Source: a virus. Taken from it: a DNA stretch of 64,000 nt. Under the pieces are notes generated by a model. The model was not told the origin of the DNA. It saw nothing but the letters and a program-made list of their open reading frames with translations, and made no database searches. The translations under genes and the position numbers were made by a program. Below, one piece after another: positions 11,424 through 48,091 of the stretch (position 1 is the stretch's first letter; each line of letters opens with the position of its first letter). The DNA is taken from UHGV virus genome UHGV-0010228; one strand, 5' to 3'.

Positions 11424-13085
11424 ATGATAAATAAGAACTTACTTAGAACTGGTCTTATAAATAAATTTACTAACCAATTAATGGAATCGGTTGTAACTGA
11501 GGCTTTTGTTCGTGGTCTTCCATTCAATAAAGAAGACATGACTCATGAACTTGATTCATATAGAAATTATGTTGGATCGGTACTTGAAAGCTTAGGCGGT
11601 GGCTATATATTACTTGAAAATGCAGTTAAGAATAGCAAGCCTGGTTATATACATGATTTAGCAATCGATATAGTATCGACAGCAATTGAAGCAGCAGATA
11701 GAGTTGTAAAGGAGTCTAGTGAAGTTACAGATCCTGAAAATTCTATGTATTCAATAATTGATGAATCAGAGTTTACGGCTGAAGAACTTTCTAGATTTAA
11801 AAAGAAAGGCTCAAATATATCAATTAAAGATGTGGGTAAGGTTATCAATAAAAAGGTTATTGATACTATTAAATTAGAAAAAAATGAATATGAAGATTCA
11901 GAGGATCTTAAGGAAAAATTATCCGCAGCATTAGATGATGCTACAGATAAAGAAGATTCTGAAAAGAATGCTGGAGACGAACCATCAACTGCAGATGATT
12001 CTACTTTATCTGAGGATGATCTAAACGATCCAGATCTCGGTGATGATGATTCTAAAGATTCAGAACCTATAGAAAATGAAAAGAGTGGGTTAGAATCACT
12101 TTATCGTACTAATCTTACACCATTTGATGTTGTTAAACCTATTAGCTTATTCTCAAAGTTACAGGATCTTTGTCTCGAATCTGTATTATGTACAAATGAA
12201 GTATATAGTTCATTACCATTTGAGACTTTAACAAAGATAACTATGGAATCTACTTTAAGCGATTTTTCGCCAAAGAGTAGAACTATTGAGGAAGAATTAG
12301 AAAGTCTTAAACTTGCATCAGAATCTTATAGAGACTCTGACCTTTCTAATGATTCATTTAAATCTAAAATAGACACTGCAATGTCATGTGCTATATGTAT
12401 TGAGACTATATTAGAAACCCTTAATACCCTTAGATTATATAAGCCATCATTAGAATCGGTAAGAGATTTTGTTGATAAACATATCACATATACATCAGCA
12501 ACAGAATCAGATCTTAATGCTATAAAGAATAAGTTAACTGGAATTTCTAAGAGTATGCTTGCTGATGCTGCAGATAATGATTCTATTGAGGATTTAAGAA
12601 ATGTATATACACATATTGAATCAATAGTTGAAAGTGTAGAGGAATTACCACCAGAATACGACTCAATAAAAAATGATGTTCATGCAGCATTTGAATCAAC
12701 TGCTAAGTATATATATGATAAATGTGTTGATCTTAACAATCACTATGATGCAGTTACTGAATCTATATATGATATTAAGAATAGAGAAGCTAATATAAGT
12801 GAATTTGATAAGATCGCTAGAACTTATGGTAAGCACCCAAATGTTAGTGAAATAAGAATCGTATTTGATTCTGCAAGTGAGAATGTTGGAGCTGTATCAA
12901 TCGATGCATATGGTAGAAATGGTAATAGACTTGATAGCACAATAGCAGTTATGCATGGCCATGAGTCTTATAAAACATTCAAAGATTGTGTATTAGAAGC
13001 TGCTCAGTTATCTAAACTTCCATATACTGGAAAGAATCTTAATTACTACGATAAAACTACTTGTAAGCTTCATAATTTATACTAA
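11424..13085 (+). CDS. acidic hypothetical protein (about 554 aa, D/E/S-rich middle region)
   Basis: ATG at 11424 with AAAGGTGG RBS. The listed 11412 GTG start is less likely. Confidence 0.6.
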   Translation: MINKNLLRTGLINKFTNQLMESVVTEAFVRGLPFNKEDMTHELDSYRNYVGSVLESLGGGYILLENAVKNSKPGYIHDLAIDIVSTAIEAADRVVKESSEVTDPENSMYSIIDESEFTAEELSRFKKKGSNISIKDVGKVINKKVIDTIKLEKNEYEDSEDLKEKLSAALDDATDKEDSEKNAGDEPSTADDSTLSEDDLNDPDLGDDDSKDSEPIENEKSGLESLYRTNLTPFDVVKPISLFSKLQDLCLESVLCTNEVYSSLPFETLTKITMESTLSDFSPKSRTIEEELESLKLASESYRDSDLSNDSFKSKIDTAMSCAICIETILETLNTLRLYKPSLESVRDFVDKHITYTSATESDLNAIKNKLTGISKSMLADAADNDSIEDLRNVYTHIESIVESVEELPPEYDSIKNDVHAAFESTAKYIYDKCVDLNNHYDAVTESIYDIKNREANISEFDKIARTYGKHPNVSEIRIVFDSASENVGAVSIDAYGRNGNRLDSTIAVMHGHESYKTFKDCVLEAAQLSKLPYTGKNLNYYDKTTCKLHNLY

Positions 13086-15716: not shown

Positions 15717-18700
15717 TTATAATGTAGCTATTTTATTATACATTGAATTTAGATTAGGATTCTTTAATGATTTTGCACTTTTTGCTCTACTTCCAGTAGA
15801 AATATTATTTGTCTTATTACCACCAATAATTGTAGTGTTACCACTATTTGTAATGTTAGTTGGACTAGAATTCTTACTGTCACCATACCACTTGTCAATA
15901 GTATTAGCAATAGTATCGAGTCTAGATTCAACTCCATCATTATTAGCATTAATAAATGTATTCTTATTAATAAATCCACCATTTTCAGAATTGCCTCCGA
16001 AGTATGGAGCATCTGGGTTTATATTATATCTCTTTGCCATATTAACATTTGCTATATTTAACTTCTTATTATAATCAGGCCCTAAACCTACTAAGCTATA
16101 TGATGCAGGATTGATCCATGACCCGTTTTTCTTTACACCATAATGTAAGTGGTTACCTGTAGACTTGCCAGTAGATCCAACAAGACCAACTTTAGCACCC
16201 TTAGCAACTCTAGCGCCCTTAGACACTAAGCGCTTACTCTGATGAGCGAAGTAATGTTGAGTTCCCTTACTATCTGTTACTACAACAAGATTACCAAATC
16301 CACCAGTACTACCAGGAGATTCCGATCTAGTAACAGTACCCGATACAGGTGTATAGATTGGAGTTCCAGCTGGTGCTGCAAAATCTATACCATTATGCAT
16401 CTTACGTTTACCGCTCTGTGGATCTGATCTATATCCGAATGGACTTGAAATTCTCGTGTACTTCAATGTTTTCTGAATGGCTTCTTTAGCATTATTACCA
16501 ACTACATTAACTGATGAACCAACTGAAGAGCCAGATAAAGAAGAAGATGATGACTTAGATGTAGTATTAGTGTTTGATGATTTTCCAGATGAGTATTTAG
16601 AATTTATCCAATCCCATAAATCTCCCATCTTTGATGCTTTCATTGCATTTCCAACACCTTCTGCATATCCACTTATCATTTCACCCCACGTGGAGTTACC
16701 ATATCCAATCGGAAGATCAATATCTCCCCAGCCATAGATATTTTTTCCACCAACAGAATCGTATTGTCCTAAATTATAATTTACATATAACCGCTTTAAT
16801 TTATTTTCATAATCAATTTTTGCCATCGGGATATTATTTGGATAATCATACGTTGATGTGCAGTATCCAGCATTAGCAACTGCGTGCATTGCATCATATG
16901 CTGTAGTTGCAGTTCTAGCACCACTATATAACTTACCCGAAAGCACATCCCAATATCTAACTACACTATCACCAATGGTATTATATTTAGCCAACTTACC
17001 TTTTGGCATTACACCAAACATATTATTACTACTGAGAGCTCCACCGGCTGATCCTAAGCTTGTTTCTTGAATCGCTTGCGCCAGCGTTAATGAAGGTGGT
17101 AATGATGTTGATCTGGCGTTATCTTGAGCAAATTTTGCAAGAATATTTAATCTTTCACTTAATGATTTCTTTGCCCACTGTCTTCCACTAACATTTAATT
17201 CAGCCGGTATAGTAATTGAAGATCCGTTAAAATCTACAATTCCCGTACTACCTAAGGTTTTACCATCTTCAGCAGTTTCATAGTCTGATGATACATCACT
17301 TTCCAATTCAGAAGCAATTGCTTCCCATGGATCTGTACCATTCACATATGCTGTCATATATGAACTAATAGCACCCGCAAGTCGCTTTAATTTTGTGAAA
17401 AGATTCTCGCCTTTTAACGAACCTAAAAAGTTCATAACTCCTTCTCTAGTATGCTCTAATAAGCCGGAAGCTAAAGATTCATCAGTTGCTGCAATACTAG
17501 ACATATCAACTCCGTTTACATAGTATTCAGAATTATCAACTCTTTCTTGCATATCTTTAATTTTTGAAGATGATAATCCCCAGTTTACGTAAATATATGA
17601 CAATCTAGTTCTCTCGTGCTGTTTTATTACACTTTTAGACTTATATGTAACATTTGTACCTGTTTCAGTTTCACCATCTTTAATTACTATCGAATATTTA
17701 TTATATTTTTTATTTATTGGAATTTCGACATATCTCCAATAATCTCTTAAAGTATAATATTTATCCCTATCTGCTGATTGCATTACTGTATCTACAAGTC
17801 TTCTTAATTCAGCATCAGTAATTTTAGATACTGGAACGTTTTTCTTTCCAATAGTAGCAACATTACATACATCTGTAGATTTATTAAAATAATCAATTTT
17901 TGTTATTGTAGTATCATTCGATCCAGTCGAACTTTTCCACTTTTTATATACATATTCATAGATATATCTAGTTCTAAAAATATTATCACCATAAGTATTA
18001 ACTTTCTTTCTCCAACTTAATGCTTCATATTTTTTATATCCTTCTACAATATATTTATCATATAACTTAAAATCGGATTTTTTGTAAGATAATATTAATG
18101 AATATAGCGCAGTATTTCCAATACCTGCTAAATCTTTAGTTTGTTCAGGGACTGGTGGAATAGATTTCTTAATTGCACAGAATTTATATGGATCCGCTAA
18201 ATACTTATTTTCAATATCTCTTGAAGTCAGCTTCGTTTTATTTGCTGCATTATATAATTTTGATGGTGCCGGCGGATTATAATTTGTAGTTGTTTTAGCT
18301 TCATTTTTCTTTGCAGTTGTAATATCTTTAACCAATTTTGATTTATTGGATAGCTTATTAAGGGTTGATGATATCAGTCCATACCCAAATGGTATATCAT
18401 ATGCAGTCTTTTTTGTTTTATACATATCTGGAATATTGATATTACCATAACCATATGACCATCCACCAGTTGCATTGTTGATGACTGATGATGCTGAATA
18501 ACTCTTAGTCTTACCATCCATTGGATCTTTGATAATGATATTACCATTTGAATCCATACCTGATGCTACAACTATATGACCAGCTGATGTGAATGGATCA
18601 TTTGTATGATCTCCTCTACCGGCTACTATTGTAGGTACTCCAGATTTTATATTTGTATATAATTCGGATCCTCTAGTTACTTGATGAGGCTTTAATCCCA

Positions 18701-21700
18701 TTTCTGCAGCACCTTTGGTGAATAATGCTGCATTAGCCCCGCCCTGAGTAATATATCCATTAGCAGCTGCCATTTTACCAATGTCTCCAGGTGAAATCAT
18801 TTTACCATTAATATCATTTGCAATCATTGCTAATGATGTAGGTCCACATCCACCGTTTGCCATAGTAGATGGCTGTCCATTTGGTAATGTGCCTAATGGA
18901 ATACTTGACCACTGAGCATTTTTCTGAGATAATGCCTGACCATATCCAAAACCAACAGGTCCTCTGCCAAAACCAGCATTATTTATATTTGAAGATTTAT
19001 TTCTATTATTAGATGTATTAGTAGATGCTCCACTTCTAATAGTACCTCCACTAACATCATTCGTTATATAATCATCATTATAATCAGTCATAGTATAGCC
19101 ACTGTATGCACCAGCAGGTTTACCATAACCTAAAGCTTTATTCATAGATATGATTGGATGTCGAATCACACTCCATACACGTTTTATTACACTTCTATTT
19201 GCTATAGTGTCACTATATTCATCTAATGTTAAATCATCACCATTTTCTGCATTATATTGAGCAGCTTCTTCTTCAAATCTTTTCTGAGCTTCATCAAGAT
19301 TAAGAGCAAACTGATCATTGAATAACCCAGATAATTTATCATATAAGAACGATGCAAATTCACATTTAAGATCACATCCTTTAAATGCACCTACAACTTC
19401 TAATGTTAAGTCTATTACAATACCTACACTAATACCCATAAGGCATTTCATTACTGATGATATGAATCTCATTAATAAATCAACATCATTTGCATTTACT
19501 TTGAATAAATTAGCAGCTTCAAAGAATCCAGTTGCTAAATCGTATACACCGAATAATATTCCTATCGGAGAAGTAGTTATTCCGGCCTTAGCTATCTGAG
19601 TTCCTAATAAAGTTGCATATTTCATATATATTCTATCTTCTGATAATATAAATGTTAACTTATCTTTGAGCCATGAACTAATAGCAGATATTGTTTTAGC
19701 AATAACTGTCTTTTGTCCACTCTTATCTTTCATTATTTTACCTAATACTTTTAGTACAACCTTATTCTTTGCAATTGCACTTATTCCTTTTTCTACTAAT
19801 CCAAATGCTTTTCTAATAAGACCTTTTCTACTTTCTTTAACTGCATCACTAGCTCCTGTTTCAACAACGCTCTGTGTTGATTTCTTAAGAATATCTTTTT
19901 CAAAATCAGTTGTTGCTTCACCTGCAGCAGCCTTTGCAGTTGCTTCAGCAATAGCACCAGCTTCGGACTTTGACATAGTAAATCCAAGATCAAGGGCTGT
20001 ATCTTTAATAATGTTTCTTCTAGCAATATCCACAATTGATTTGCTTACAGATTCTGATGCATATTTTTCAAGTACTCCTAATCTTTCTTCAACTGGAAGA
20101 TACTTTAATACTTCTTCTAATAATTCTTCAGGTGCTTTATGAACACTAAGGCCTTTAGCAACCATAGCTCCAGCACCACTTTTAACATTACCAGCAGCAC
20201 TTTCAGCAGATATTCCTTTGAGAATATCATATGCTTGCTTATCATCTATATTTGAAACTAATACTTTATTGACTTCGTCTAATGTCTTATCAGATATATT
20301 ATTTAATGCGCCATTCTGTAATACCCTAGCTCCAATATCAGATGCACGTCCACTTCTAAGACCTGTAGAAGATACTATAGTATTTATACTTGATCCTGCT
20401 ACTGATCTAGCAACTGAACTCGTAGCTTTAATAGCGGCATCGCCTAATGCGGCACCTCTAGCTCCACCATATAATGCCCCTGTAACTGGCGAAATTCCTC
20501 CTGGCATTAATCCAAAAGCTCCACCAACCGTAGCACCCAGGACTGCACCGGCACCCTTATATAGCAATTTTCCAGTTCTACCACCACGAGCAGCATTAAT
20601 AGCACCTCTAACAAATCCATTTAATCCTATTCTTTGTGCATCAGTATGCTCAGCATATGTTGCATTTCCATCTTCATCAATACCTATAGCATCTTGATCT
20701 CTAGTATATGAAATAGTACCATCTTCATCAACATCAATAACATTATTACCATTAGCTTGCAAGCCTTGAATCATTGATGCTCTTTGCTCTTTGCTCATGT
20801 GAGCAGTTGATAATGTGTATACTTCAGTTGTATCAGTTTTAAACTTCCATCCTGGGACTAGTTTACCAACAGTAACATTCCATAATGCTTTAAGAACTGA
20901 TCCTGCTATAGTTGGAATTACAGAAATAAATGCATTCATCATTGGTTCTGCTAATGTATTAAACATGACCTTTATAACATCAGCAATATAATGAGCATTC
21001 TTTCCTATATTTTCAAATACTTTAGTTATTGATGGGAATATGTATTGATTCCAATACATTGGGAAGTTTTCTGAGAACTTATTAATACCATTACCAATAG
21101 ATGTTAATCCATGCTCTAATGTTGGTAATACATATTGATCCCAAATTGCTCCACGCTCAATGAAATTAGAGAATTCCTGAGTCTTAGCTTCAAGTCTAGC
21201 CTGGAAACCAGGTCTTATAATTTCAGCTATACCTATAGTTATACCTGCTACAGTGTATGCAGGAATAATTTTCTTAACACCAGCAACTACTAATTTAGCA
21301 GGAAGGGTATTGCCAACCGCACCTAATACACTTCCAGATACTCCTAAAATCTTTCCAAGAGCTTTTCTAATTATAGATGTATCATTTTCAGTTGGTTTTT
21401 CTTCTTCTTCATTAGTTTTAGCAGCAGATGTTGCACCTATAGTTGCAACTGAAGTTGCACCTTTACGAACTTCCTCAGTATCTTCATCTTTTCTATTAAG
21501 AGCAAAAAAGCTCTTAATATTATTTTTCATATTTTGAACATTCTCATTTTCTGTTATTTTATATTTATCCATTATACGTTTACCGAAACGCTTTAATGGA
21601 TTTCCTTTTGACGTACTCTTTCTCTTCTTTCTAACATCATCACCAGTAATATCACCATCTGTATTGATTTCAACATCAACTGCAGCAGCATCAGCAATAT

Positions 21701-24700
21701 CCTGATTAATTTTATTAGCTTCTTTCTGAAGATTTTCATTTTCTTTAGCAAGATTTATCTGTTCTTCCTGAAGCTTATGATTTAATCCTGCTAATTCATT
21801 TGTCTCTCTGAATAAATCAATTATCTTCTGTAAGTAAGATGACTTAGCGTCGTCATTATCTTTAATCTTAGATTCTACAAAATCTGCTAAACCATTAATA
21901 CCTTCAGGACCTAATCCCTTATCAATTTTACCAGATTTCTTAACTCTCTTAAGATTTTCAATAACGCTAGCATTAGATGCATCTTCTGATGTTCTACCAC
22001 CAAATGTGAATCCTGAAAGATCTACATCTCCTGCATACGCAGCTTTAATTAATTTATCAAGGAATATATCTTTATTAATACCTACTCTAGAATACATCGC
22101 ATCATCATTAAATCCAACATTCATTCTCGTAGCTTTTCTGCGTATATCTCCATATTTTCTAACATATTCTTCACGCATAGCTTCATATTTATTCTTGTCA
22201 GCTTCAAACTGATTCTTCTTTGAATTATATCTAAATCTCTTTTTCTCATTCTCATCTTTACGCTTTCTCTGCTTTACAAAATCTCTAAAATTACCAGTAG
22301 CAAAATATCCTGATTCTCTATATTCGTTAAATAAATCATCATCTAAGATATCTGCACTAAGATTACCAATATCTTCGATACCCATACCACTAGTATCTAT
22401 TCCATGTCTCTTTAACTTCTTTAATATTCTATCTGCATATTCAGTTCTATCAGCTTCACTAGTAAATTCATTTATTTTAAGATGGCTATTTAAAGCCTTC
22501 CCAGCAAAGAAATCTCTTATTGACTGGAGATAATCTTCTACTGCTGTCTGATAGCGCATAGTGCGTTCTCTTGCAGCTTTTTCTTCTGGGCTTTCCTGAA
22601 CTTTAACACCATCACGCATTATCTGCTCTTCAAGTGTGCCATTCTTTACAGCCTTAGACCATTCTCCACGTCTATAAAGTAAATCCATAATATCATCAGA
22701 TGTTTGTAATCTATTCAGATACTTATCATCTTTCATACCTGCTTTACGGAACATCTCACGATATCTCTTCACCTGTTCATCTGTTAAATCTACTTCTCTA
22801 CCACCAAGATCTTTAATTGTGATATTTTCTCTGATCTTATTGACCTTTTTCCACATCTTATTTTCTTTCTTGGCAGCTTTAGCTTTTGCATTTAGATCAT
22901 CTAAATCATTATCTGCTGTCATCCAATCAAATGCATTTCTACCAAGATCTGACATTTGATCAGCCCATCCTTCTTTTGCAGCTCTAGCTATATCACCTTT
23001 ACCTCTAATAGCTTGGAATATATCTACAGCTTTTCCTAATCCTGTTCTGCTATTACCAGCTTCACGTTCAGTTCTCCACTTACCCATGAGCATAGTAGCA
23101 ATATTTCTACGATATTCTTTTCTATAATCACCCATAGCATCTTTACGTTTACCACGAGTCAATAACTCTAAACCACGAAGACCTATAGAAACCGGAGCAA
23201 CTGCACCATAGATTCCTAATGACGCCGTTTTAGTTACAGCTTTAGTGATAAGCTTAGTTAATGACGCTACTGGACCAAATATTCTATGAAGGGCACCTTC
23301 AATAATAGTCTTAGCACCATCACCTATTTTTTCAATAACCGCTTTTATATTGTCTACAATATTATCTTTAACTTCTTTTATACTATCAACTATTGGACCA
23401 AATGCTTTTCTAAATGGTATTGTAATATTTTTTCTAATGGTATTTAAAGTTCCCATTACATGTTCTTTTGCAGGTCCTATGATATTATCAATTATAGTAA
23501 CCTTCATAACATTAGCCATTCGTCTTAAAAGACCATTAGTTTTTCTACCTATTACATTACCATTTTCATCAACTTGCTCTGTACCAAATAAGTATTCATT
23601 AAATTTCTTACTTGCAGAACTCATTCCGATTACCATACCAGCAATACCCATACCAATAGGTCCACCAGCAGATAATGCTGCAGGAATAAATCCCATATGA
23701 GACATCGTAGTAGCAGTTAATGCACCAATAGCAAAACCTTTTATTCCCTTACCGATCATAGGGAATAATTTGCCGAGTCTTTCTTTAGATTTATTCCAAT
23801 GATTTGATAACCAAGTTCCGCTGCGTTTTCCATCAGCACCTTTTTCACCAAATAACATTGATTGGAAAGACTCATTATTCTTTAATATACCTAATGCCGC
23901 ACCTAATAACGCACCACCAATTACACCAGAAGGTAATAATGCAGATGTTAACACTCCACCAGCACCAAACTGAGATACTGTCGAAGGCAATACTATTGAT
24001 TTTATAACACCTAATGTTGCACCACCAATTGCAAATGGTAAAGCTTTCTTAAATGATGCTTGCATCTTTTTAGTGAATATACCACCATGACGCTCACCAT
24101 TATCATCCATCTTACCAAACATTACAGACTGGAATGCTTCGGTGTGACTAAGAATTGATAGACCAGCCGCAGCGATAGCTCCACCTAATACAGTGTGAGG
24201 TAAAAATGCAAGACCGGTTAATCCTAAATTTTGTCTAGTTGCTAATAATCCGAAAATACCACCAGCTATTGCAGCTGCAGCTGCTTTAGGAGCAATCTTC
24301 TTTGCAGATTCTTTAAATTTTTCAAAGATATTCTGAGTAACTTTCTTTTTCTTAGTACTATCATTACTACCTTTTATATCTTCAGCAACATCTTCTGCTG
24401 CATCTTCAATTTTTTCTGCACCATTATATATCGTTAACGCAAATTGATCTTTTGCTGACTCGATCATATCCGCGGAATTATCAACTCCAACTGTGAATCT
24501 TTTCTTAGCACCTATAAGTTTCTTTCCAGTGAATCGTTTATAGTTACGCTTAGGGCCTTCTAATAATTTTGTCTCAGTAGCATTTATATATTTCTTATCT
24601 TCTACATCATCTGTAAGATTACTAGTAATATTTACTGTAGATTTTCTATCTCCTGGCTTTCTGAGTTTCCTCTTAAGAGATTCTTTTGTAACCCCTTCAG

Positions 24701-27680
24701 CCAATTGTACTTTACGAGGATCATTTTCCATTTGATAAACTTTATTTCGTTTATCTTTTCTATGTCTATCAGTCCATGATAAATATTTAAGATAAGTTTC
24801 ATTATTTTGCCAATCCTCACCAAATAAGTAAGTCATGGTACCACGCTGAATCTTATCGTATCCTTTTCCTAATTCTTCTTTGGTCTTTTTCCAAAAAGAC
24901 TTTTTACCATCCTTAGCTTTCTTAACCTGATCTTTAAATATACCATCTTTTTCATCAAAGAAATATTTCTTTATCTTTTCTCTAAGTTTTTTAGATGGTT
25001 CACTATCCCAGAATTTTGATAATAATCCATTTTCACCAAATAATGAAGATGTGAAATTAGTAAAGCTTGCAGATAAATTAGAAATTGCTATTGTATTAGC
25101 ATTTGCATTCTGCATTAAAGCTTCTTCTGGGGTATTTGGTGTTGGAGCATCTTGTAATCTATTAACTAAATTATTTCTAAGAGCAGTATCCTGTGCAACC
25201 TTTCTCTGGTCTCTACCAAGAATATCTTTTGGATTTCCGGTAATGTCCATCTTTTCAACTTGTGCACGAATATCATCAGTATCATTACTATGCCTAGCTC
25301 TTCGATTACGCATTCTATTGCGTAATGCTGCTTTATTACCACTAAATTTTACAGACCGTTTAGTACCAACACTATATGTGTTATAATCCAGATCATCAAA
25401 ATCAAAATCATCGGCGCTTCTAACTGGTCTGTAATGTTTATAATCGAAATCATCTTCGAGATCTTTATTTATCCCATATACAGTTCTAAAAAGTCTATCA
25501 TCTACAGGATCTACAAATTTTGATCTAGCATATTTATTCATTCTCTTCTTGCGCATTGCTTCGGCACGTTTAGGAGAGAATTTTCCAACAATTTTTTCTC
25601 CAAGATGAGTATTCTTTACTATCCATTCTTGATAATATTTCTTAATTATTTTCTTACATTCAGTCTTTTGCTCATTGATAGATGTAGCTTTATCGGCTAC
25701 CTTTTGTATTTCTTTATAAAATCCAGGTTCTGATGCGATATCTTCAATAATATCATCAGTAATTCCCATTTCTCGCATATAGTTCAATATACGTTCATCA
25801 ATCAAGCTTGAATCCATAAAGGCATATTCAAAATGGTTAATATCGAACTTTCTTCTACCACGTTCATCAGTACGTTTAAACTTTATATTATTTCTTCTAT
25901 CATTCCAAGCAGTTTTTCCGTACTGATTATTAATGTTTCTAAATATTGAAGTATCTGATGATCCAATATCAAATAACTTCTCGTTCAATCCAGCAATTGA
26001 CTCATTTATATAATTATCATAATCCATTATAGCTTGCTTATATAGATTATAATTTTCTTTCTTAAGATATGAGATTGCCTTTGCGAACTCAATACGTGCT
26101 TGTTTATCATCTATATTATCAAATATTCTATCATTAGTAATTTCACTTACTCTAGATGAAACCTTTTTTCTTTGCTTCTTATCACCAACTCCATTTATTG
26201 CATCAGTAATAGATTCGGCCATATTATTAAGAGAATATTTAAGCTCATCATTGAAATCTTTTTCAATACGATCTTTAGTCTTGAACATTCCTGTTTCATA
26301 ATCATAGTATCTCTTATTACCTTTACTATATGAAACTCGATTAAATCCATTAGGATCAACATTGAGATTTGATTTGGATAATATCTTACTGATATTAGCA
26401 ATATTATTATCCATACTACTCAAATATTCAGGAATTACTTCAACTATAGCTCTTTGAGCATATCCATTCCATGGTAAAGCATCTTTTGTATATCCACTAA
26501 GGCTTAATCCTTTTAATTTATTTCGGTCATTACCAAAAATATCACTAATTCCTAATAATGACCATATCATCTGCCCACCAAAGCCTAAACCTTTTGGTGA
26601 ATAACTCCCAATTCTTTTCAATATCTCATCGGCATATTTGCCAATCTTTTCATCAAATTTCTTTAATGATTTTGGCATTGCCATACCAATGAATTTTTCT
26701 GCAATAAATCCTACAGGATCATTCTTTATTTTCTTTATGGTATCTCCTCCGCCCATTCCTTGACCAGGAAGCATGAGCTGAGCCATTGTACCTAATAATG
26801 AATTTCCAAAATTATTTTTAACGTATCCAAGATATTCTTTTACATTAAATCCACTAGAAGTGTCAAAGTTTTTGCTTGAAGGTTTATCTTTAGAATATTT
26901 ATATTTTGTCATATTTTCAAGCATATCGCCAATTCCACTCATCATATCATTTGCAGATGAGAAGAAATCGCCCATAGTTTCATATGCTTGAACTGTATTT
27001 GAATTATGAAATTCTAACAGTTTTTCAATATTATCATTTATTCTATCAACCTTATGATTTAAGGTCATAAGTGATGAATTCAACAAATTCGTTCCATATA
27101 GAACTGAATTTATTATAGCATCAGCATTAGCACTAGAAAGTTTTGCATTTGTCCTATTTATACTATTAGCTAAATGCTCCATTCCTTTTACTTGTGCCGA
27201 ACTTGATAGCACAATTGACTTCGCAACACCAGCAGATGCATTCATATACACTTCTGCGTTTTTTGAATTATTTGTACTATCAGAAAACTCATCATCATCT
27301 AAAGCAAAATCATCATTTAAATCAAAATCTCCCATTATATCATTTTCAAATGAATCATATAATTCATCTGATACAATATTTGAGAAGACTCCCGAATTTA
27401 ATTGCTCTTTTGCTCTATTAAAAGTATCTCGAGCAGCTTTAGCGAGTTTATTTTTACCCATCTCTCTCTGCTCTTGGGTCTGCACATTCTTAAATTTTCT
27501 TGATGTATTTCTTATCTCCTTATTAATTTCTGAAATACCTTGTGCAGTATTATATGTTGATGGTAATACTTCTTTAGCAGTTATCTTAAAAGCATTACCA
27601 ACTGACGATCCAGCATTTCTTACCCAAGATTTTTTCTTAGATCTCGAACTGCTAGATCTAGATTTTATAGTTCTAGCCAA
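15717..27680 (-). CDS. Giant 3987-aa virion/tail protein: tape-measure-like glycine-rich TM region plus C39-like peptidase, lytic transglycosylase and M23 peptidase domains
   Basis: Uninterrupted ORF with TTG start and AAAGGTGG RBS. The middle has Gly/Ala-rich membrane-spanning segments (AAAAIAGGIFGLLA..., GGPIGMGIAGMVIGM). Domain motifs: GGCGPTSLAM...GHIVVASGMD (C39-like); LTLAQAIQETSLGSAGG...NNMFGVM (SLT/lysozyme-like); HNGIDFAAPAGTPIY...GNHLHYGVKKNG (M23). Confidence 0.85.
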   Translation of the reverse strand: MARTIKSRSSSSRSKKKSWVRNAGSSVGNAFKITAKEVLPSTYNTAQGISEINKEIRNTSRKFKNVQTQEQREMGKNKLAKAARDTFNRAKEQLNSGVFSNIVSDELYDSFENDIMGDFDLNDDFALDDDEFSDSTNNSKNAEVYMNASAGVAKSIVLSSSAQVKGMEHLANSINRTNAKLSSANADAIINSVLYGTNLLNSSLMTLNHKVDRINDNIEKLLEFHNSNTVQAYETMGDFFSSANDMMSGIGDMLENMTKYKYSKDKPSSKNFDTSSGFNVKEYLGYVKNNFGNSLLGTMAQLMLPGQGMGGGDTIKKIKNDPVGFIAEKFIGMAMPKSLKKFDEKIGKYADEILKRIGSYSPKGLGFGGQMIWSLLGISDIFGNDRNKLKGLSLSGYTKDALPWNGYAQRAIVEVIPEYLSSMDNNIANISKILSKSNLNVDPNGFNRVSYSKGNKRYYDYETGMFKTKDRIEKDFNDELKYSLNNMAESITDAINGVGDKKQRKKVSSRVSEITNDRIFDNIDDKQARIEFAKAISYLKKENYNLYKQAIMDYDNYINESIAGLNEKLFDIGSSDTSIFRNINNQYGKTAWNDRRNNIKFKRTDERGRRKFDINHFEYAFMDSSLIDERILNYMREMGITDDIIEDIASEPGFYKEIQKVADKATSINEQKTECKKIIKKYYQEWIVKNTHLGEKIVGKFSPKRAEAMRKKRMNKYARSKFVDPVDDRLFRTVYGINKDLEDDFDYKHYRPVRSADDFDFDDLDYNTYSVGTKRSVKFSGNKAALRNRMRNRRARHSNDTDDIRAQVEKMDITGNPKDILGRDQRKVAQDTALRNNLVNRLQDAPTPNTPEEALMQNANANTIAISNLSASFTNFTSSLFGENGLLSKFWDSEPSKKLREKIKKYFFDEKDGIFKDQVKKAKDGKKSFWKKTKEELGKGYDKIQRGTMTYLFGEDWQNNETYLKYLSWTDRHRKDKRNKVYQMENDPRKVQLAEGVTKESLKRKLRKPGDRKSTVNITSNLTDDVEDKKYINATETKLLEGPKRNYKRFTGKKLIGAKKRFTVGVDNSADMIESAKDQFALTIYNGAEKIEDAAEDVAEDIKGSNDSTKKKKVTQNIFEKFKESAKKIAPKAAAAAIAGGIFGLLATRQNLGLTGLAFLPHTVLGGAIAAAGLSILSHTEAFQSVMFGKMDDNGERHGGIFTKKMQASFKKALPFAIGGATLGVIKSIVLPSTVSQFGAGGVLTSALLPSGVIGGALLGAALGILKNNESFQSMLFGEKGADGKRSGTWLSNHWNKSKERLGKLFPMIGKGIKGFAIGALTATTMSHMGFIPAALSAGGPIGMGIAGMVIGMSSASKKFNEYLFGTEQVDENGNVIGRKTNGLLRRMANVMKVTIIDNIIGPAKEHVMGTLNTIRKNITIPFRKAFGPIVDSIKEVKDNIVDNIKAVIEKIGDGAKTIIEGALHRIFGPVASLTKLITKAVTKTASLGIYGAVAPVSIGLRGLELLTRGKRKDAMGDYRKEYRRNIATMLMGKWRTEREAGNSRTGLGKAVDIFQAIRGKGDIARAAKEGWADQMSDLGRNAFDWMTADNDLDDLNAKAKAAKKENKMWKKVNKIRENITIKDLGGREVDLTDEQVKRYREMFRKAGMKDDKYLNRLQTSDDIMDLLYRRGEWSKAVKNGTLEEQIMRDGVKVQESPEEKAARERTMRYQTAVEDYLQSIRDFFAGKALNSHLKINEFTSEADRTEYADRILKKLKRHGIDTSGMGIEDIGNLSADILDDDLFNEYRESGYFATGNFRDFVKQRKRKDENEKKRFRYNSKKNQFEADKNKYEAMREEYVRKYGDIRRKATRMNVGFNDDAMYSRVGINKDIFLDKLIKAAYAGDVDLSGFTFGGRTSEDASNASVIENLKRVKKSGKIDKGLGPEGINGLADFVESKIKDNDDAKSSYLQKIIDLFRETNELAGLNHKLQEEQINLAKENENLQKEANKINQDIADAAAVDVEINTDGDITGDDVRKKRKSTSKGNPLKRFGKRIMDKYKITENENVQNMKNNIKSFFALNRKDEDTEEVRKGATSVATIGATSAAKTNEEEEKPTENDTSIIRKALGKILGVSGSVLGAVGNTLPAKLVVAGVKKIIPAYTVAGITIGIAEIIRPGFQARLEAKTQEFSNFIERGAIWDQYVLPTLEHGLTSIGNGINKFSENFPMYWNQYIFPSITKVFENIGKNAHYIADVIKVMFNTLAEPMMNAFISVIPTIAGSVLKALWNVTVGKLVPGWKFKTDTTEVYTLSTAHMSKEQRASMIQGLQANGNNVIDVDEDGTISYTRDQDAIGIDEDGNATYAEHTDAQRIGLNGFVRGAINAARGGRTGKLLYKGAGAVLGATVGGAFGLMPGGISPVTGALYGGARGAALGDAAIKATSSVARSVAGSSINTIVSSTGLRSGRASDIGARVLQNGALNNISDKTLDEVNKVLVSNIDDKQAYDILKGISAESAAGNVKSGAGAMVAKGLSVHKAPEELLEEVLKYLPVEERLGVLEKYASESVSKSIVDIARRNIIKDTALDLGFTMSKSEAGAIAEATAKAAAGEATTDFEKDILKKSTQSVVETGASDAVKESRKGLIRKAFGLVEKGISAIAKNKVVLKVLGKIMKDKSGQKTVIAKTISAISSWLKDKLTFILSEDRIYMKYATLLGTQIAKAGITTSPIGILFGVYDLATGFFEAANLFKVNANDVDLLMRFISSVMKCLMGISVGIVIDLTLEVVGAFKGCDLKCEFASFLYDKLSGLFNDQFALNLDEAQKRFEEEAAQYNAENGDDLTLDEYSDTIANRSVIKRVWSVIRHPIISMNKALGYGKPAGAYSGYTMTDYNDDYITNDVSGGTIRSGASTNTSNNRNKSSNINNAGFGRGPVGFGYGQALSQKNAQWSSIPLGTLPNGQPSTMANGGCGPTSLAMIANDINGKMISPGDIGKMAAANGYITQGGANAALFTKGAAEMGLKPHQVTRGSELYTNIKSGVPTIVAGRGDHTNDPFTSAGHIVVASGMDSNGNIIIKDPMDGKTKSYSASSVINNATGGWSYGYGNINIPDMYKTKKTAYDIPFGYGLISSTLNKLSNKSKLVKDITTAKKNEAKTTTNYNPPAPSKLYNAANKTKLTSRDIENKYLADPYKFCAIKKSIPPVPEQTKDLAGIGNTALYSLILSYKKSDFKLYDKYIVEGYKKYEALSWRKKVNTYGDNIFRTRYIYEYVYKKWKSSTGSNDTTITKIDYFNKSTDVCNVATIGKKNVPVSKITDAELRRLVDTVMQSADRDKYYTLRDYWRYVEIPINKKYNKYSIVIKDGETETGTNVTYKSKSVIKQHERTRLSYIYVNWGLSSSKIKDMQERVDNSEYYVNGVDMSSIAATDESLASGLLEHTREGVMNFLGSLKGENLFTKLKRLAGAISSYMTAYVNGTDPWEAIASELESDVSSDYETAEDGKTLGSTGIVDFNGSSITIPAELNVSGRQWAKKSLSERLNILAKFAQDNARSTSLPPSLTLAQAIQETSLGSAGGALSSNNMFGVMPKGKLAKYNTIGDSVVRYWDVLSGKLYSGARTATTAYDAMHAVANAGYCTSTYDYPNNIPMAKIDYENKLKRLYVNYNLGQYDSVGGKNIYGWGDIDLPIGYGNSTWGEMISGYAEGVGNAMKASKMGDLWDWINSKYSSGKSSNTNTTSKSSSSSLSGSSVGSSVNVVGNNAKEAIQKTLKYTRISSPFGYRSDPQSGKRKMHNGIDFAAPAGTPIYTPVSGTVTRSESPGSTGGFGNLVVVTDSKGTQHYFAHQSKRLVSKGARVAKGAKVGLVGSTGKSTGNHLHYGVKKNGSWINPASYSLVGLGPDYNKKLNIANVNMAKRYNINPDAPYFGGNSENGGFINKNTFINANNDGVESRLDTIANTIDKWYGDSKNSSPTNITNSGNTTIIGGNKTNNISTGSRAKSAKSLKNPNLNSMYNKIATL
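16100..16465 (-). other. M23 (LytM-type) metallopeptidase domain of the giant protein
   Basis: HxxxD...HxH motif set: HNGIDFAAP, then NHLHYG near 16154. Confidence 0.7.
16760..17180 (-). other. Lytic transglycosylase (SLT-like) domain of the giant protein
   Basis: AQAIQETSLGS... catalytic-Glu motif encoded near 17040-17110. Confidence 0.6.
18455..18900 (-). other. C39-like (papain-fold) peptidase domain of the giant protein
   Basis: GGCGPTSLAMIAN...GHIVV. The cysteine is encoded near 18840-18850. Confidence 0.55.
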
Positions 27681-27808: not shown

Positions 27809-28216
27809 TTAAATCTTTTGTGGTATATGTGTATATACACAGCCTTCATCACCATCACCGGAATCAAACTTACAATAATTAATATACTTTAAAGCAATTA
27901 ATTGCGCCAAATCTTCATGAATTCCTAAACAAATGTGCATATCCTGACTCATCTCACCAATAACGAAATATGTTTGACGACCTTCATCAATTGTTTCTAT
28001 ATCTCTATACCAACTTTTTAATTGACTTATAGATATTGGTTCATAATTATTATCTTGGGCAAATTGATATTTTTCATATATTTCTTTTCCCGTAAGCTTT
28101 TTTAAATCAGAATTATATGCGTTTAATACGCGTCTTGCTTCATCATTAAATTCTTTAGTTGCAGTTAATGCTATTACTAATTTAAGGAGATCATTTTCAA
28201 TCTGTTTTATTATCAT
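27809..28216 (-). CDS. hypothetical protein (135 aa; start uncertain)
   Basis: ORF from the first ATG with no RBS. The frame stays open for 38 more codons upstream (see findings). Confidence 0.5.
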   Translation of the reverse strand: MIIKQIENDLLKLVIALTATKEFNDEARRVLNAYNSDLKKLTGKEIYEKYQFAQDNNYEPISISQLKSWYRDIETIDEGRQTYFVIGEMSQDMHICLGIHEDLAQLIALKYINYCKFDSGDGDEGCVYTHIPQKI

Positions 28217-28338: not shown

Positions 28339-28896
28339 TTATCTATCACCATATTTTTTATAAAATTCATCCACATTATCTTGATAATATCTAGTTATAT
28401 TATTTATCATTGTGGTAATATCTAAATATACAAACTCTCCCCTGTCGTTAGTAAATAAATAAGCAATATCTTGATCTCCAATCCAATAATATACAATCTG
28501 TCCACCGAGTTTTATTTTGAAAAAATCATTATTGTAAGTTTTAGAATATTCCTTAAATTTTTTATTATCTGGATCTACATCATTAACTGATATTTCAGTT
28601 TCATCATCAGGTCCAAAAATCTTTCGAAATTCTTTTAAAAATAATGCTTTGTTATATTTAATTTTATTCGGATAGCATAATTCGATATAAAGATTTAAAA
28701 AGTTAGTGATATAATTTAAATCTTCATATTTATCTCCTTCTATTACTCCATTAATTTGAGGATCATTGTATACAACTCTTGAAATTTTTCGCATGAGTAC
28801 ATTCTGAGCTTTCTTTTGACTTCTTGCTTCTTTTTTAACAGCTCTTATATCTTTTAATTTAGAAATTAATCCTTCCATTACTATTATATCATTCAT
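28339..28896 (-). CDS. hypothetical protein (185 aa)
   Basis: GGAGG RBS. Preceded by the 68-bp leader repeat. Confidence 0.65.
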   Translation of the reverse strand: MNDIIVMEGLISKLKDIRAVKKEARSQKKAQNVLMRKISRVVYNDPQINGVIEGDKYEDLNYITNFLNLYIELCYPNKIKYNKALFLKEFRKIFGPDDETEISVNDVDPDNKKFKEYSKTYNNDFFKIKLGGQIVYYWIGDQDIAYLFTNDRGEFVYLDITTMINNITRYYQDNVDEFYKKYGDR

Positions 28897-28965
28897 ATAT
28901 AATACCTCCTTATATTATATAGTATTAATATAATGTATAATAAAAAAAAACAAGTGAATGACTAA
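28897..28965 (-). promoter_or_regulatory. 68-bp leader/promoter repeat, copy A
   Basis: Nearly identical to 30502..30572 (tattaatataatgtataataaaaaaaaacaagtgaatga). Confidence 0.5.
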
Positions 28966-29901
28966 TATTAGTCATTCACTATTATTAACTATATTGATTA
29001 TAATTCATTATATACCACAACTACCACTCCGTAGAATATACACACTTTGTCTCGCGATCATGCAACATGTTAACCATGACCTAACACCCCGTCGCCACCG
29101 TTTGCTTCTTCGGATCTTCAAGCTTTCGAAAACCCGCTTAAAATATACTACCCGCCACGTTACACGGTTTGCTATCTACATCGGCTCTTTCGAATGCAGA
29201 ATGCTCAAATGTTGAAACTTTAAATATCACTTAAGGACATTTATCATTACAACGCAATCATAGCATTAAATGTGCAGATTTAGATAGCAACAAATAATGC
29301 AATCATGTTTCGAGTATATTCTAAACGGGGAGGTTCTCTAATTGCACCGCCACGCCCAGTGAGGATGTTAGTCACCTACAGCAGTAATTGCGTAGAGCTA
29401 TATAACATCGTTAATTATAACCTAGTTATTTATTATCTTTAGTATATTATATAAAAGATTAGCTTCTTATTGTATCTAATCTATCTAGTAGAGTATTTAT
29501 TACCATCTACTAAATCTAGTCTATATAATATAAAATTCTTATATTATAATCATATTATAAACTATCATATTGTAAAGTGTCCTGATAATATTAATTGACA
29601 CGAATGTGAAGCCTATGTATATACTTCGAATTACAACAATATCGTTTTTAGATATCTTATTGACTAGCTATTAGTATTATTATGAACTATATAGCAATTC
29701 TTATCATATAATATCAATAAGAGATAGCGCGATTAAAAAATAAAAATAATCAATCAAAAAAGAATATCGCTAAATATAATATAACTATATTATAGAATTA
29801 TTCGTCACATAATTAATTTTAAATCCCATTTAAAATTAATTTCTATAATTATGTTATATCAATATAAAAAAATAAAATCAAAAACCATTTTGTTATTATT
29901 A

Positions 29902-30501
29902 TCAAATCATGCCCATCATCATCAGATTATTCTGCTGCAGCATTTGTTGCTGTTGCATCATATCAATATGTTGTTGTTGCATTTGTTGCTGTTGCATCTG
30001 AGCAAATAATAATGCAAGCGATTGACGATCCTTTGGTGACATATGAGTATTAATTCTATCTATCAATTCTTTTCGTGTCACACATCTTAATTCATCATAA
30101 ATGAAAAAATAGAATTTAGTCGTACCGATAATTGATTTAAATTCCATAACAGCAAATTTGACGCCATGAGTTTTAGTATTGATATATGTAATTTTAGTTT
30201 TAATTTTTGCATTATCATACTCTATTTTTTTAGTATATTTCCTCTCTTTAGCTTGCACTATTAATAATTCTTTAAACAATGCATCATCTTCCATCGCATG
30301 TTTAAGTGCTATCTCAAGACCTCCATTAAATTCTCTAGATCCATCATCAAATGTGTTACAATATAATCTAACCAATTCAGTATCTGATGCTTTTTCTAAT
30401 TTTTTCGGAAGGTTCCTTATAGCATTAAATATCTTTCCTTCATATGCATAATCATTATCTATTACATTATATGATTCTAATGTATTATATAAATCAAACA
30501 T
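29902..30501 (-). CDS. hypothetical protein with Q/M-rich C-terminus (199 aa)
   Basis: GGAGG RBS, leader repeat copy B. C-terminus reads MQQQQMQQQHIDMMQQQQMLQQNNLMMMGMI. Confidence 0.6.
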   Translation of the reverse strand: MFDLYNTLESYNVIDNDYAYEGKIFNAIRNLPKKLEKASDTELVRLYCNTFDDGSREFNGGLEIALKHAMEDDALFKELLIVQAKERKYTKKIEYDNAKIKTKITYINTKTHGVKFAVMEFKSIIGTTKFYFFIYDELRCVTRKELIDRINTHMSPKDRQSLALLFAQMQQQQMQQQHIDMMQQQQMLQQNNLMMMGMI

Positions 30502-30572
30502 TATAATACCTCCTTATATTATATATAATATTAATATAATGTATAATAAAAAAAAAACAAGTGAATGAATCA
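30502..30572 (-). promoter_or_regulatory. 68-bp leader/promoter repeat, copy B
   Basis: Direct repeat of 28897..28965. Confidence 0.5.
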
Positions 30573-31012
30573 CATGATACAGTGGATCTATACAAATCAA
30601 CATTATAATGAGTCGGCCCCGACTATTCATATAATATTAATATTGTATAGATCCTAGTATCATAGCACAATCTGCAGAATAGCAGAAGGTTGATAGTCTT
30701 CCTTTCCTTTCTATAATATCTACTTTCACATGATACTATCATGTTACGTTAGAATGATATTTCATTCAAGTGATCAATATTTTAGATTTTGTCTATCCTT
30801 TATATTTTTAATACTTTGACAAATTGAGGAAATTTATATAGTTTTATAACACCACCCTACAAGTTACCGCTAACCCAGTAACCCCGATGTTAATATGCTA
30901 GCTAGGATAAATCATCTTACATGCAATGCAACACGAGAATGTAGTAATGCAGCAAGATAATTTATCCTAGCCTATATAAGTTCACTTTAATAATATATAA
31001 GTATAATTTTAA

Positions 31013-31423: not shown

Positions 31424-31453
31424 ATAAATTTCCTTTCAAAAAAAAAAAATAAG

Positions 31454-31477
31454 AGAGCTATTATATAATAGCTCTCC
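31454..31477. terminator. Bidirectional terminator gagagctattata|tataatagctctc flanked by A and T runs
   Basis: Perfect 24-nt palindrome with A11 upstream. Confidence 0.65.
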
Positions 31478-31500
31478 ATAATTAATATTAATTATTAAGT

Positions 31501-32085: not shown

Positions 32086-32159
32086 TTTTTTAATCTCCTT
32101 TTCATGATTCAGATTTAATTATAAATTAAATTACTCGTGGTGTTCGTTGAGTTATAAAT

Positions 32160-39128: not shown

Positions 39129-39541
39129 CAAAAAAAGCTTGTTAGATGTCGCAGTATAATACCTTGTGAATTGCGGGGATAATTGATACTTTTTATATAC
39201 TAAATCATTATAGTAATATAATGATGGCGAGGGGTAATTCCTTAGGTATAGTAATAATTATAAAAAGAATATTAAATCCGCATCTAATGCTCTTTATACG
39301 AGAAAAGTTCAGAGACTATCGAAAGCTAGATATCTATCATTTATAGAAATATATAAAATACTATACAATATATAGTATGGATAGATTGAGATAACCAAGT
39401 GAGTAGAGTAGAGCCAAGTTATTGGGTTAGTATATATATGATATTAGTATATAGTAAATCTATTAAATCGAAGCGCAAGGGTTAGATTTTATTTGGTAAA
39501 AGAGTAAGATCTAATAAGATATAGTCCGCGATCACATTGTG
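39129..39541 (+). ncRNA. Group I self-splicing intron in the RNAP beta-like gene (413 nt, no ORF)
   Basis: Classical core elements: P gaattgcgggga (39168-39179); Q aaatccgca (about 39282); R gttcagagactat (about 39307-39319); S aagatatagtcc (39516-39527). Internal guide gtcgcag (39148-39154) pairs with exon end cugcgau (39122-39128), with a U-G closing pair. Omega-G at 39541. Confidence 0.85.
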
Positions 39542-40724
39542 GTCTTACAAGCAAACGAAATACATGATTCCAGTTGCTGATTCGTCACCAGTGTTAATAG
39601 GTAATAAAGTTGAATCTATTTTACCATATTTAATTTCAAATGAATTTGTTGTTGATGCTAAGCAAGATGGTGAAGTTGTTGAGATTAAAGACGATTATTG
39701 TGTCGTAAAATATAAAGATGGAACTTATTATTCTATAGATATTGGAAGTAGAATTAAGAAAAATGCAAGTGCAGGTTTCTTTATAGACAATAAATTAACT
39801 TGCAATTTAAAAGTTGGAGATAAATTCAAAAAGGGTGATATTTTAGCTTACAGTGATAAAGCATTTACTCCTAATAGAGATGGTAAAGGCGCATCTATGA
39901 ATTTAGGAGTATTAACAAAAATTGCAATTGTAAGTAATTGGGATGTATATGAGGATAGTGCACCTATCACTAAAAAATTAGCTGAACGGTTAGCTACAGA
40001 TATGGTTTGGGAAAAAGCAGTATCATTAAATCCTGGTACTTACATTGAAAAGATGGTTAAGATTGGTGATAAAATAAAGACTGGTGAATCACTGATGTTA
40101 TTTGAAGAAGTTGATGATACGGATTTCGCTGCTGTTCTTAAACAGATTCGTGAAGAAAATCAAGAAGAACTTATTGAAAGCACAAAATCAACTATTACTT
40201 CGAAATACACAGGAGAAATTGCTGATATTAAAATATATTCAACTGTGCCAGTTGAAGAGATGGATGAATCTTTAGCTAAAATAGTGACCGATTATTATAA
40301 AAAGGTCGAAAAAAGAAATAATATTCTTGAAAAATATAAGAATCCTGGAGATTGTAATTATTATAAATCTGGACAGATTATATCTGAGGAATCTAAAGTT
40401 ATGAAACCATCTAAATCTGGTAAGATTAAAGGTGAGTATGCCGAAAATTCAGTAGTTATTGTATTCTATGTTAAGTATAGAGATGTAGCTGCTAAGGGTG
40501 ATAAAGTATGTGCACAGTTCGCACTTAAGGGTGTTTGCTCACATGTTATAGAAGAAGGATTAGAGCCATATTCTGAATATAGACCAGATGAAGAAATATC
40601 AGCTCTTATTGCACCTCTTGCAGTATCTGCAAGAAAAGTTCCGTCAGTATTCAAGATGATGTTTGGTAATAAATTGCTTATAGAATTAAAACGACATTTG
40701 AAAGATATGTACTTAAATAACTAA
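39542..40724 (+). CDS. Multisubunit RNA polymerase beta-like subunit, exon 2
   Basis: Junction codon at+g gives Met: ...HDDPDRTA-M-SYKQTKYMIPV (compare [20 protein letters not shown]). Downstream GDILAYSDKAF...NLGVLTKIAIVSNWDVYEDS (compare GDVLADGPSTD...NMRVAFMPWNGYNFEDS). Also ALKGVCSHV...LIAPLAVSARKVPSVFKMMFGNKLLIELKRHL (compare GNKGVISKI...[22 protein letters not shown]). The protein stops at about E. coli residue 1100. Confidence 0.75.
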
Positions 40725-47981: not shown

Positions 47982-48021
47982 AGTATTTTCCTCCTTATTA
48001 TACTATATGAGTTGTATTTAT

Positions 48022-48038
48022 TCACTTTAATAATATAC
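48022..48038 (-). promoter_or_regulatory. Conserved promoter-like motif copy (GTATATTATTAAAGTGAATAAATACA)
   Basis: Upstream of gene 47442..47981. Confidence 0.5.
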
Positions 48039-48055
48039 TAATAAAAAAAAAAGAA

Positions 48056-48091
48056 ATTACGGTATATTCTATATATAGAATATACCGTAAA
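48056..48091 (-). terminator. Terminator hairpin, identical repeat copy 2 (attacggtatattctatatatagaatataccgtaa)
   Basis: Identical to 3467..3502 over 35 nt, and continues the identity through ...taatataatgaaa. Confidence 0.6.

Follow-up and report, generated by a model that had tools for sequence, protein, structure and literature searches.

A candidate noncoding RNA gene with a long rod-shaped domain in an uncultivated jumbo phage related to AR9

In bacteria and phages, large noncoding RNAs with extensive structure are rare, and each new class (OLE, GOLLD, ROOL, HEARO/omega RNA) reportedly opened unexpected biochemistry. 6S RNA, of ~180-200 nt, and Ms1 are rod-shaped RNAs that sequester RNA polymerase, the large central bubble of 6S RNA mimicking an open promoter. 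Phage T4 encodes species 1 and 2 (rnaC/rnaD), stable RNAs of ~120-140 nt located in a transfer RNA (tRNA) cluster under phage promoters, and the packaging RNA (pRNA) of phage phi29, with 174 nt and a defined three-way junction, is part of a protein machine. GOLLD and ROOL are large, ornate noncoding RNAs, often found in phages or prophages and near tRNA genes, that form RNA-only assemblies (PMC12286853, PMC5737381). Here, we describe a gap without open reading frames (ORFs) in the virus genome UHGV-0010228, analyzed as a stretch of 64,000 nt that we call the window, and we propose that this gap is probably a noncoding RNA gene transcribed on the minus strand, in the same sense as its neighbours. 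Like phi29 pRNA, the product would be a phage-encoded structured RNA, and its locus adjoins virion genes, but it shows no similarity to the 174-nt three-way-junction pRNA.

The gap covers positions 28897-29901 (1005 bp), slightly more than the ORF-free region recognized in a preliminary description of the window, and lies between the minus-strand genes 29902-30501 and 28339-28896. Stop codons of all three kinds are common throughout its six frames, none of which is open, so that recoding of one stop codon cannot restore a gene. The longest ORF (28958-29215, plus strand, 85 amino acids (aa)) has no ribosome-binding site and is frameshifted in the related contigs L009 and L012; together with the six-frame translation, this led us to reject a coding reading. 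The two compositional parts given in the preliminary description are real: positions 28990-29420, which hold no credible ORF, have a guanine-plus-cytosine (GC) content of 38.7%, with a maximum of 0.44 in 29000-29199, versus 29.7% for the window, and the following AT-rich part (29421-29900) has 19.4%. The tagtaga/tctacta and atattata-type repeats reported for 29420-29900 were also located, the former as an inverted repeat (TAGTAGA 29486-29492, TCTACTA 29506-29512) that stands next to a second one (AGATTAG 29456-29462, CTAATCT 29476-29482), and five TATATTAT cores lie on both strands between 29443 and 29793. The Rfam/Infernal scan suggested in that description matched no family: there is no match at the gathering score anywhere in the window, and cmscan to E = 10 on 28700-30100 gave only chance-level matches to small nucleolar RNA and microRNA families, which are eukaryotic, and to small RNAs. 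ARAGORN found no tRNA or transfer-messenger RNA in the window.

The GC-richer island corresponds to the 3' domain of the proposed RNA, a predicted irregular rod of 427 nt (28996-29422, minus strand) identified by its fold, its substitutions, and its conservation. The rod contains about 135-158 predicted pairs, 21-23 of them G·U (15-19%), and one side hairpin; its 5' and 3' ends pair mutually and its largest internal loops measure ~6x4 nt. The island folds at -123 kcal/mol on the minus strand (z -3.2) versus -84 kcal/mol on the plus strand (z -1.0), an advantage due to the 21-23 G·U pairs. The nesting depth of the rod is 122, compared to 60±16 in dinucleotide shuffles, and was attained by none of 150 shuffles.

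A fold predicted from nothing but the window sequence served to sort the substitutions found in the relatives L004, L005, L009, and L012. A standard pair is kept by 18 of the 21 paired-site substitutions, including two double compensatory changes, which affect the rod and the terminator once each, and two of the three substitutions that break pairing sit at the pair closing the apical loop. All of the tolerated paired-site changes are transitions (18/18), half of the unpaired-site changes are transversions (7/14), and eight of the 18 tolerated changes would abolish pairing on the plus strand. When the same numbers of transitions and transversions are placed at random, 13.1±2.6 pairs are broken, versus 3 observed, and none of 20000 trials gave 3 or fewer. 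The RNAalifold consensus coincides with the minimum-free-energy fold of the window alone, with 0 broken cells across 157 pairs.

About 15 nt past the 3' end of the rod begins an intrinsic terminator (28942-28980, minus strand), found by a terminator scan and an inverted-repeat search, which consists of a perfect 14-bp hairpin (28980-28953) followed by U, G, and nine U (28952-28942). Its stem carries a compensatory change from A-U to G-C in L009. As expected for a stand-alone noncoding RNA gene, the unit has its own intrinsic terminator and a secondary structure that is evolutionarily maintained, both in the window lineage and in the two further lineages presented below.

The close relatives all derive from human-gut assemblies in ENA and Logan. 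The 185-aa protein encoded downstream, which forms a single 90% cluster in a collection of 5.8 billion proteins, led to contigs L004-L008 (from Hadza and MERR22 samples), which match the window at 93-99% identity. More distant contigs were reached through the 565-aa neighbour protein, whose aa identity is 90% in L011, 76% in L009, and 58% in L012. Close relatives were not found in IMG/VR by protein-based, gene194-alignment, and DNA-pattern scans (three DNA-pattern matches were chance matches on GC-rich contigs), protein-alignment scans of JGI metagenomes and of GTDB genomes gave no relatives, and the GenBank phages (INPHARED) contain no DNA match for the window unit or for the corresponding units of L013 and L028, which belong to the further lineages.

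The comparison with relatives called for in the preliminary description indicates strong conservation. Identity between the window and L009 and L012 amounts to 96.5% in the rod, 92.5-92.9% in the AT tract, and 90-94% in the upstream intergenic region; in three neighbouring genes, the third codon positions are 62-80% identical (62-73% in the flanking genes) and the first and second positions 87.5-98%. The rod thus changes at the slow rate seen for nonsynonymous sites in the best-conserved of the neighbouring proteins. A recent block transfer cannot explain this conservation; the differences are non-random, and indels occur only in hairpin loops. Short intergenic regions near the locus (e.g., 32086-32159 and 31424-31500) are 93-100% identical between relatives, compared to the 62-80% of third positions, which indicates that, in this group of phages, promoter and terminator signals evolve much slower than synonymous sites.

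Judged by its polymerase genes, its g204-like giant protein, and a recurring AR9 early promoter, the genome is that of an uncultivated relative of the AR9/PBS1 (Takahashivirus-related) jumbo phages. The window is AT-rich, with the GC content given above, and comes from a very divergent jumbo phage with genes for a ribonucleotide reductase of the anaerobic type and for a beta-like RNA-polymerase subunit that is split: an Rpb2_6 domain was detected in ORF 39537-40724, and a 1051-aa protein shares ~30% identity with beta subunits from Yersinia phage phiR1-37, Listeria phage LPJP1, and the Staphylococcus S6/PALS_2 phages. The giant ORF of 3987 aa (15717-27680, minus strand) matches at its N-terminus g204 of Bacillus phage AR9, annotated as 'tail tape measure protein'. 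The early-promoter consensus of AR9 is AAATATATATTAT-N6-G (PMC5312081), and the motif WTATATTAT-N6-G occurs at 19 sites in the window versus 4.2±2.4 expected, upstream of many genes; its over-represented form, ATATATTAT-N6-G, agrees with the published consensus.

The AT-rich part of the gap would form the 5' domain of the RNA (29423-29844, minus strand), for which the alignments and RNAalifold predict a series of hairpins; the TATAATATA/TATATTATA repeats would supply the long A/U helices that close it. Read along the minus strand, a T-rich stretch is followed by a block that contains AACA-taatta-TA, the palindrome 29841-29811, ~400 nt of AT-rich hairpins, the rod, and the terminator. The palindrome (29811-29841, no strand) is a perfect 14-bp one with a GGG/CCC loop, located near the 5' end of the unit and invariant across the relatives. 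Three variable patches of the tract, where indels occur, are hairpin loops, and the stems are either invariant or change in a compensatory manner (UA to CG at alignment columns 115/152 and 194/215; GUGUC/GACAC to GUGCC/GGCAC), with G·U intermediates that likewise favour the minus strand. The AT tract is probably co-transcribed with the rod, for a total of ~900 nt, because GGUUAUAAUU (29422-29413) is part of the basal helix of the rod, which points to a single transcript for the tract and the rod. For the same reason, the TATAAT at 29419-29414 was ruled out as a promoter of the rod, and the transcript start has to lie further upstream.

A weak candidate for this start is an AR9-type late promoter, AACA-N6-TA (29844-29855, minus strand), with the first transcribed A at 29844, which fits the late-promoter consensus of AR9 (PMC5312081). 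The block in which this site lies does not vary among the relatives, and it is homologous (78% identity) to the beginning of the L016 noncoding region. On the plus strand, an early-promoter-like site, GTATATTAT-N6-G, can be read at 29442-29457; its TATATTAT core at 29443 is invariant in the relatives, and its first-position G is also present in the early-type promoter of gene 47442-47981. This site could yield an RNA antisense to the AT-rich domain, pointing away from the rod.

A conserved 194-aa neighbour protein led to two further lineages, namely L013-L015 (homologue 48% aa identical, 270-kb contigs, 44% GC) and L016 with L023-L031 (42% aa identical, contigs up to 288 kb, 33% GC). In both, the gene order is kept, 0.9-1.0 kb directly upstream of the giant gene is free of ORFs, and the final 340-420 nt before a strong terminator fold into a rod, with nesting depths of 89 (L013 lineage) and 160 (L016 lineage), compared to about 50-61 (standard deviation 14-17) in shuffles. 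The sense strand again folds better than the antisense strand (-227 vs -185 kcal/mol for the whole L013 unit, -135 vs -72 kcal/mol for the L016 rod). Pairing is kept by all seven substitutions in L013 (P = 0.002) and by 30 of 41 in L016, where four compensatory pairs are found and 11 pairs are broken versus 23.4±3.1 expected. At its beginning, the L016 stretch has a block (TATAACATAA...) that is homologous, at 78% identity, to the first part of the window unit, and a strong terminator closes the stretch.

In L013, the stretch comprises in order a terminator, an early promoter, tRNA-Gln(UUG), a terminator, ~670 nt of noncoding sequence, and a strong terminator. The +1 G of the early promoter is the first base of the tRNA-Gln(UUG) gene (L013 11940-12030), and likewise in L014 and L015. 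The acceptor/T-arm end of this tRNA doubles as the stem of an intrinsic terminator. Run in E-value mode on L013, cmscan gave only chance-level matches. A tubulin gene (PhuZ-like; Pfam Tubulin/Tubulin_2) lies at L013 1-373, near RNA-polymerase genes. The short motifs GGGCGUG, AACGGUG, and UUCGAAAG are shared between the lineages in differing order, and we treated them as chance.

The reading of the gap as a noncoding RNA gene is based on several lines of evidence: the strand-specific fold, the structure-preserving substitutions, the terminator with its compensatory change, conservation above that of the neighbouring proteins, the unusual rod shape as measured by nesting depth, the AR9-type early promoters of the phage, and counterparts with this architecture, identically placed, in two distant lineages, with tRNA-Gln alongside in L013. 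The preliminary description had offered a stable noncoding RNA as one option, and these observations favour it. The transcript would start somewhere upstream of 29422, most likely near 29844 at AACA-N6-TA, or alternatively arise by read-through from the early promoter 30998-30983, and it would end at the intrinsic terminator 28980-28942. Its 3' half would form the G·U-rich 427-nt rod and its AT-rich 5' half a set of hairpins, giving a mature product of roughly 0.45-0.9 kb. We infer that this RNA would be stable, trans-acting, and made by the phage's own multisubunit RNA polymerase, and that it would most likely act through protein binding or sequestration or through self-assembly, like other large phage-associated RNAs. 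Protein binding or assembly is favoured over antisense regulation because the near-fully paired rod leaves little single strand and because the unit is bounded like a stable RNA.

Several points weigh against this reading. The transcript and its ends, as well as the protein-binding or assembly mode of action, are predictions, and the details of minimum-free-energy folds are unreliable for RNAs longer than 400 nt. The rod varies by only ~3.5% in the window's own lineage, with just two double compensatory changes, and the RNAalifold column-shuffle control is weak (24/500), due to the very few columns that vary. The unit contains no canonical early motif on the minus strand, and AACA-N6-TA is not enriched in the window (11 found versus 16 expected); this motif is too short for significance, and we rejected it as a statistically supported promoter class. 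Across the lineages, blastn with word size 7 and nhmmer --max match only the start block and the terminator/promoter end, and with no similarity between the rods, the common architecture could be convergent or a positional coincidence. The equivalent position in AR9 is a gap of only 240 nt, with no ORF-free kilobase, which indicates that the element is not general to the AR9 group.

The gap might instead be a cis-regulatory buffer, in which the structure and the terminator insulate the late giant gene from early transcription, or a long processed leader, and the released RNA would have no function. The locus does lie between the early promoter 30998-30983 and a gene that has its own AACA-N6-TA site in all three lineages, and two consecutive terminators are present. 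However, one hairpin terminator suffices for such a role, which does not need a 427-nt rod kept at 96.5% identity by structure-preserving changes; beyond the terminator, a promoter-like site and a ribosome-binding site serve the giant gene alone, and in the window the unit has stayed the same although other genes now stand between it and the giant gene. We therefore find this explanation rather improbable. An RNA-primed replication origin acting in cis, where a G-rich structured transcript would form a persistent hybrid beside an AT-rich unwinding element, appears unlikely as well. An antisense RNA started at the plus-strand site 29442-29457 might regulate such an origin, and the locus would be similar to ColE1 RNA II and the T4 R-loop origins oriF/oriG in having a structured, promoter-driven transcript of ~0.5 kb beside AT-rich DNA and a possible opposite-strand promoter. 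The noncoding DNA is strongly conserved, the AT-rich tract (19% GC) with its conserved palindromes adjoins the structured G-rich RNA, and the candidate opposite-strand promoter lies inside the 5' domain. Nevertheless, the predicted RNA ends at a strong terminator, unlike in these systems, and the locus is found among virion genes and not among replication genes. In the GC-skew check proposed earlier, the cumulative skew crosses the region with no inflection or extremum at ~29 kb and tracks gene orientation, the plus-strand skew at 28900-29200 (-0.39 to -0.43) is no stronger than in neighbouring minus-strand genes, and a search of the region for inverted and direct repeats found no regularly spaced iterons or tandem arrays.

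The inverted repeats, of which the whole region is built, could also be used as DNA, in a cruciform, a single-strand origin, or a packaging signal, since compensatory Watson-Crick changes do not tell the strands apart and a single-stranded DNA form of the sense strand is compatible with the sequence. We consider this very unlikely, given that 15-19% of the rod pairs are G·U, that the antisense folds 30-60 kcal/mol worse in all three lineages, and that most tolerated changes interconvert A-U and G·U, i.e., produce A·C mismatches on the other strand; such exchanges keep the region from being a true DNA palindrome, whereas a cruciform would need one. With this one-strand selection for pairing, no skew inflection, and no iterons, the replication origin or packaging site considered in the preliminary description is disfavoured. 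That the gap is a decayed mobile element or pseudogene, be it a degenerate intron, a homing-endonuclease remnant, or neutral captured host DNA, is hardly credible. A GC content above the phage average and a location in a hot spot of cassette exchange would be consistent with it, but the unit is more conserved than the adjacent genes, no reading frame survives (the 85-aa ORF is frameshifted in relatives), and there is neither an Rfam intron match nor a flanking exon. Two rod motifs, spaced 244 nt in the window, found no related sequence at the correct spacing in GTDB or IMG/VR; in GTDB, the rod-motif pattern gave five chance matches, all to genomes with a GC content of 62-70% and none with similarity beyond the motifs, and no host-derived copy. 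Regarding introns, each flanking ORF is a whole gene that has a start, a ribosome-binding site, and a stop of its own, and the unit is flanked by different genes in relatives, so that an intron reading fails for lack of a catalytic core and of exons. This agrees with the preliminary description, which found no intron elements or tRNA fold in the gap (no Rfam intron at E ≤ 10 in 28700-30100, 0 genes with ARAGORN). Its comparison of the gap to two intron islands finds no support, since the other GC-richer gaps contain small protein genes and Rfam finds no intron. Of its interpretations, the noncoding RNA is favoured and the origin or packaging site disfavoured; the decayed element is contradicted by the conservation and the lack of a coding remnant. 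The islands in question are probably the gaps 47982-49234 and 56196-56674, where we observe several genes of ~40-90 aa with strong ribosome-binding sites, some with hydrophobic segments and most with an early promoter and a terminator.

Other features of the locus concern its surroundings. A second noncoding unit, IGR-B (30569-31012, minus strand), lies upstream and was identified by its promoter motif, a fold with z -6.9, and compensatory changes in L009 and L012. Its canonical early promoter, ATATATTATTAAAGTG at 30998-30983 with +1 at G 30983, comes directly after the stop of a 136-aa gene, and the predicted transcript of ~415 nt contains three covarying hairpins, the last of ~45 bp and followed by a T-run, with a variable centre. 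In L009 and L012, IGR-B directly adjoins the noncoding unit (window 30569 joined to 29880), which suggests an ancestral state of ~1.4 kb without genes, containing two tandem structured transcription units. In the window, these two units are split by an accessory cassette (29881-30568, minus strand) made of a repeat R, a 199-aa gene, and a 21-nt tail. Within copy 1 of repeat R (28898-28961, minus strand) lie the T-run and the 3' half of the terminator, along with a promoter-like box and the ribosome-binding site that serves gene 28339-28896; copy 2 (30502-30568, minus strand), of 67 bp and 94% identical to copy 1, stands upstream of gene 29902-30501 and includes a sigma-70-like TATACA-16-TATAAT at 30545-30518. 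Repeat R is the recombination joint in relatives, as in L004, where it is found at 9935-10015 and 11496-11577.

The 199-aa cassette is absent in L004-L007 and in L009 and L012. In L004 and L005, which lack the 199-aa gene, the noncoding unit is 98% identical and placed downstream of the 185-aa gene, and in L009 the unit (window 29880-28944) is followed directly by the giant-protein gene. The gene order thus differs among window/L008, L004/L005, and L009/L012, with GATT microhomology at the junctions, and the changing gene neighbours around an intact unit indicate that the unit moves as a block. From these comparisons, we interpret the 199-, 185-, and 135/235-aa genes as accessory cassettes exchanged at the 67-bp repeat R. 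The 235-aa gene of L004 (11563-12270) has its first ~14 codons in common with the 185-aa gene (MNDIIVMEGLI...), and the C-terminal part of its product corresponds to the 135-aa gene of the window (27809-28216), which suggests that cassette recombination made the 135-aa ORF, either as a remnant truncated at its N-terminus or as an alternative fusion. The locus illustrates that accessory genes can enter and be shuffled at a repeated promoter-terminator joint while the RNA stays undisturbed. Compared with the preliminary description, the analysis adds that the AT tract probably belongs to the same transcript as the rod, that the unit reaches into 30569-31012, and that the flanking genes, by their distribution in relatives, are mobile cassettes.

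The neighbours of the noncoding unit are virion genes and genes of unassigned function; Pfam and PHROGs gave no function for the two flanking proteins and their neighbours, and the flanking proteins compared with each other show no paralogy. Upstream of the giant gene stand an AACA-gaccga-TA site and the ribosome-binding sequence AAAGGTGGTGAA, the latter kept across the three lineages, and relatives of its 3987-aa product carry Peptidase_C39_2, glucosaminidase, and M23 peptidase domains. Examples of early promoters, all on the minus strand, are found at 3459-3444, 4068-4053, 34449-34434, 35934-35919, 49165-49150, and 56653-56638, and a conserved leader, GTGAATAAATACA, often comes after such promoters.

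If the gap is a noncoding RNA gene, it is an unusually well delimited candidate, with a clear 3' end, a selected strand-specific rod, and positional counterparts in three lineages of jumbo phages that are abundant in the human gut, and it is directly testable. A neighbouring protein of one lineage is present on more than 60 contigs, and the phage group has its own RNA polymerases. We speculate, with considerable doubt, that the three rods are homologous and form, together with the 5' hairpin domains, a new family of two-domain noncoding RNAs of 0.7-0.9 kb, limited to an uncultivated AR9-like clade of gut jumbo phages, made by the phage polymerase, and serving as a protein decoy or scaffold. 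If so, the RNA could mimic nucleic acid and titrate a host or phage polymerase or a host defence sensor, or it could be a self-assembling particle like ROOL or GOLLD, and jumbo phages that encode polymerases would have their first associated class of large noncoding RNA.

Returning to the known systems, the proposed RNA resembles T4 species 1 and 2 in being phage-encoded and, in L013, accompanied by a tRNA gene under a phage promoter, but the T4 RNAs are far shorter. Like 6S RNA and Ms1, it would be a largely double-stranded rod with paired ends, and a polymerase decoy would suit a phage that carries its own polymerase; nevertheless, the window rod of 427 nt is twice as long as 6S RNA, has only small internal loops and one side branch, and has no Rfam 6S match. 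No covariance model of GOLLD, ROOL, OLE, HEARO, or other large Rfam noncoding RNAs matches positions 28700-30100, even at E = 10. The predicted long rod with a hairpin domain also differs from the ornate multi-junction fold of GOLLD and ROOL. What it shares with GOLLD and ROOL is the character of a large (0.5-0.9 kb) structured phage noncoding RNA, with a tRNA gene alongside in L013.

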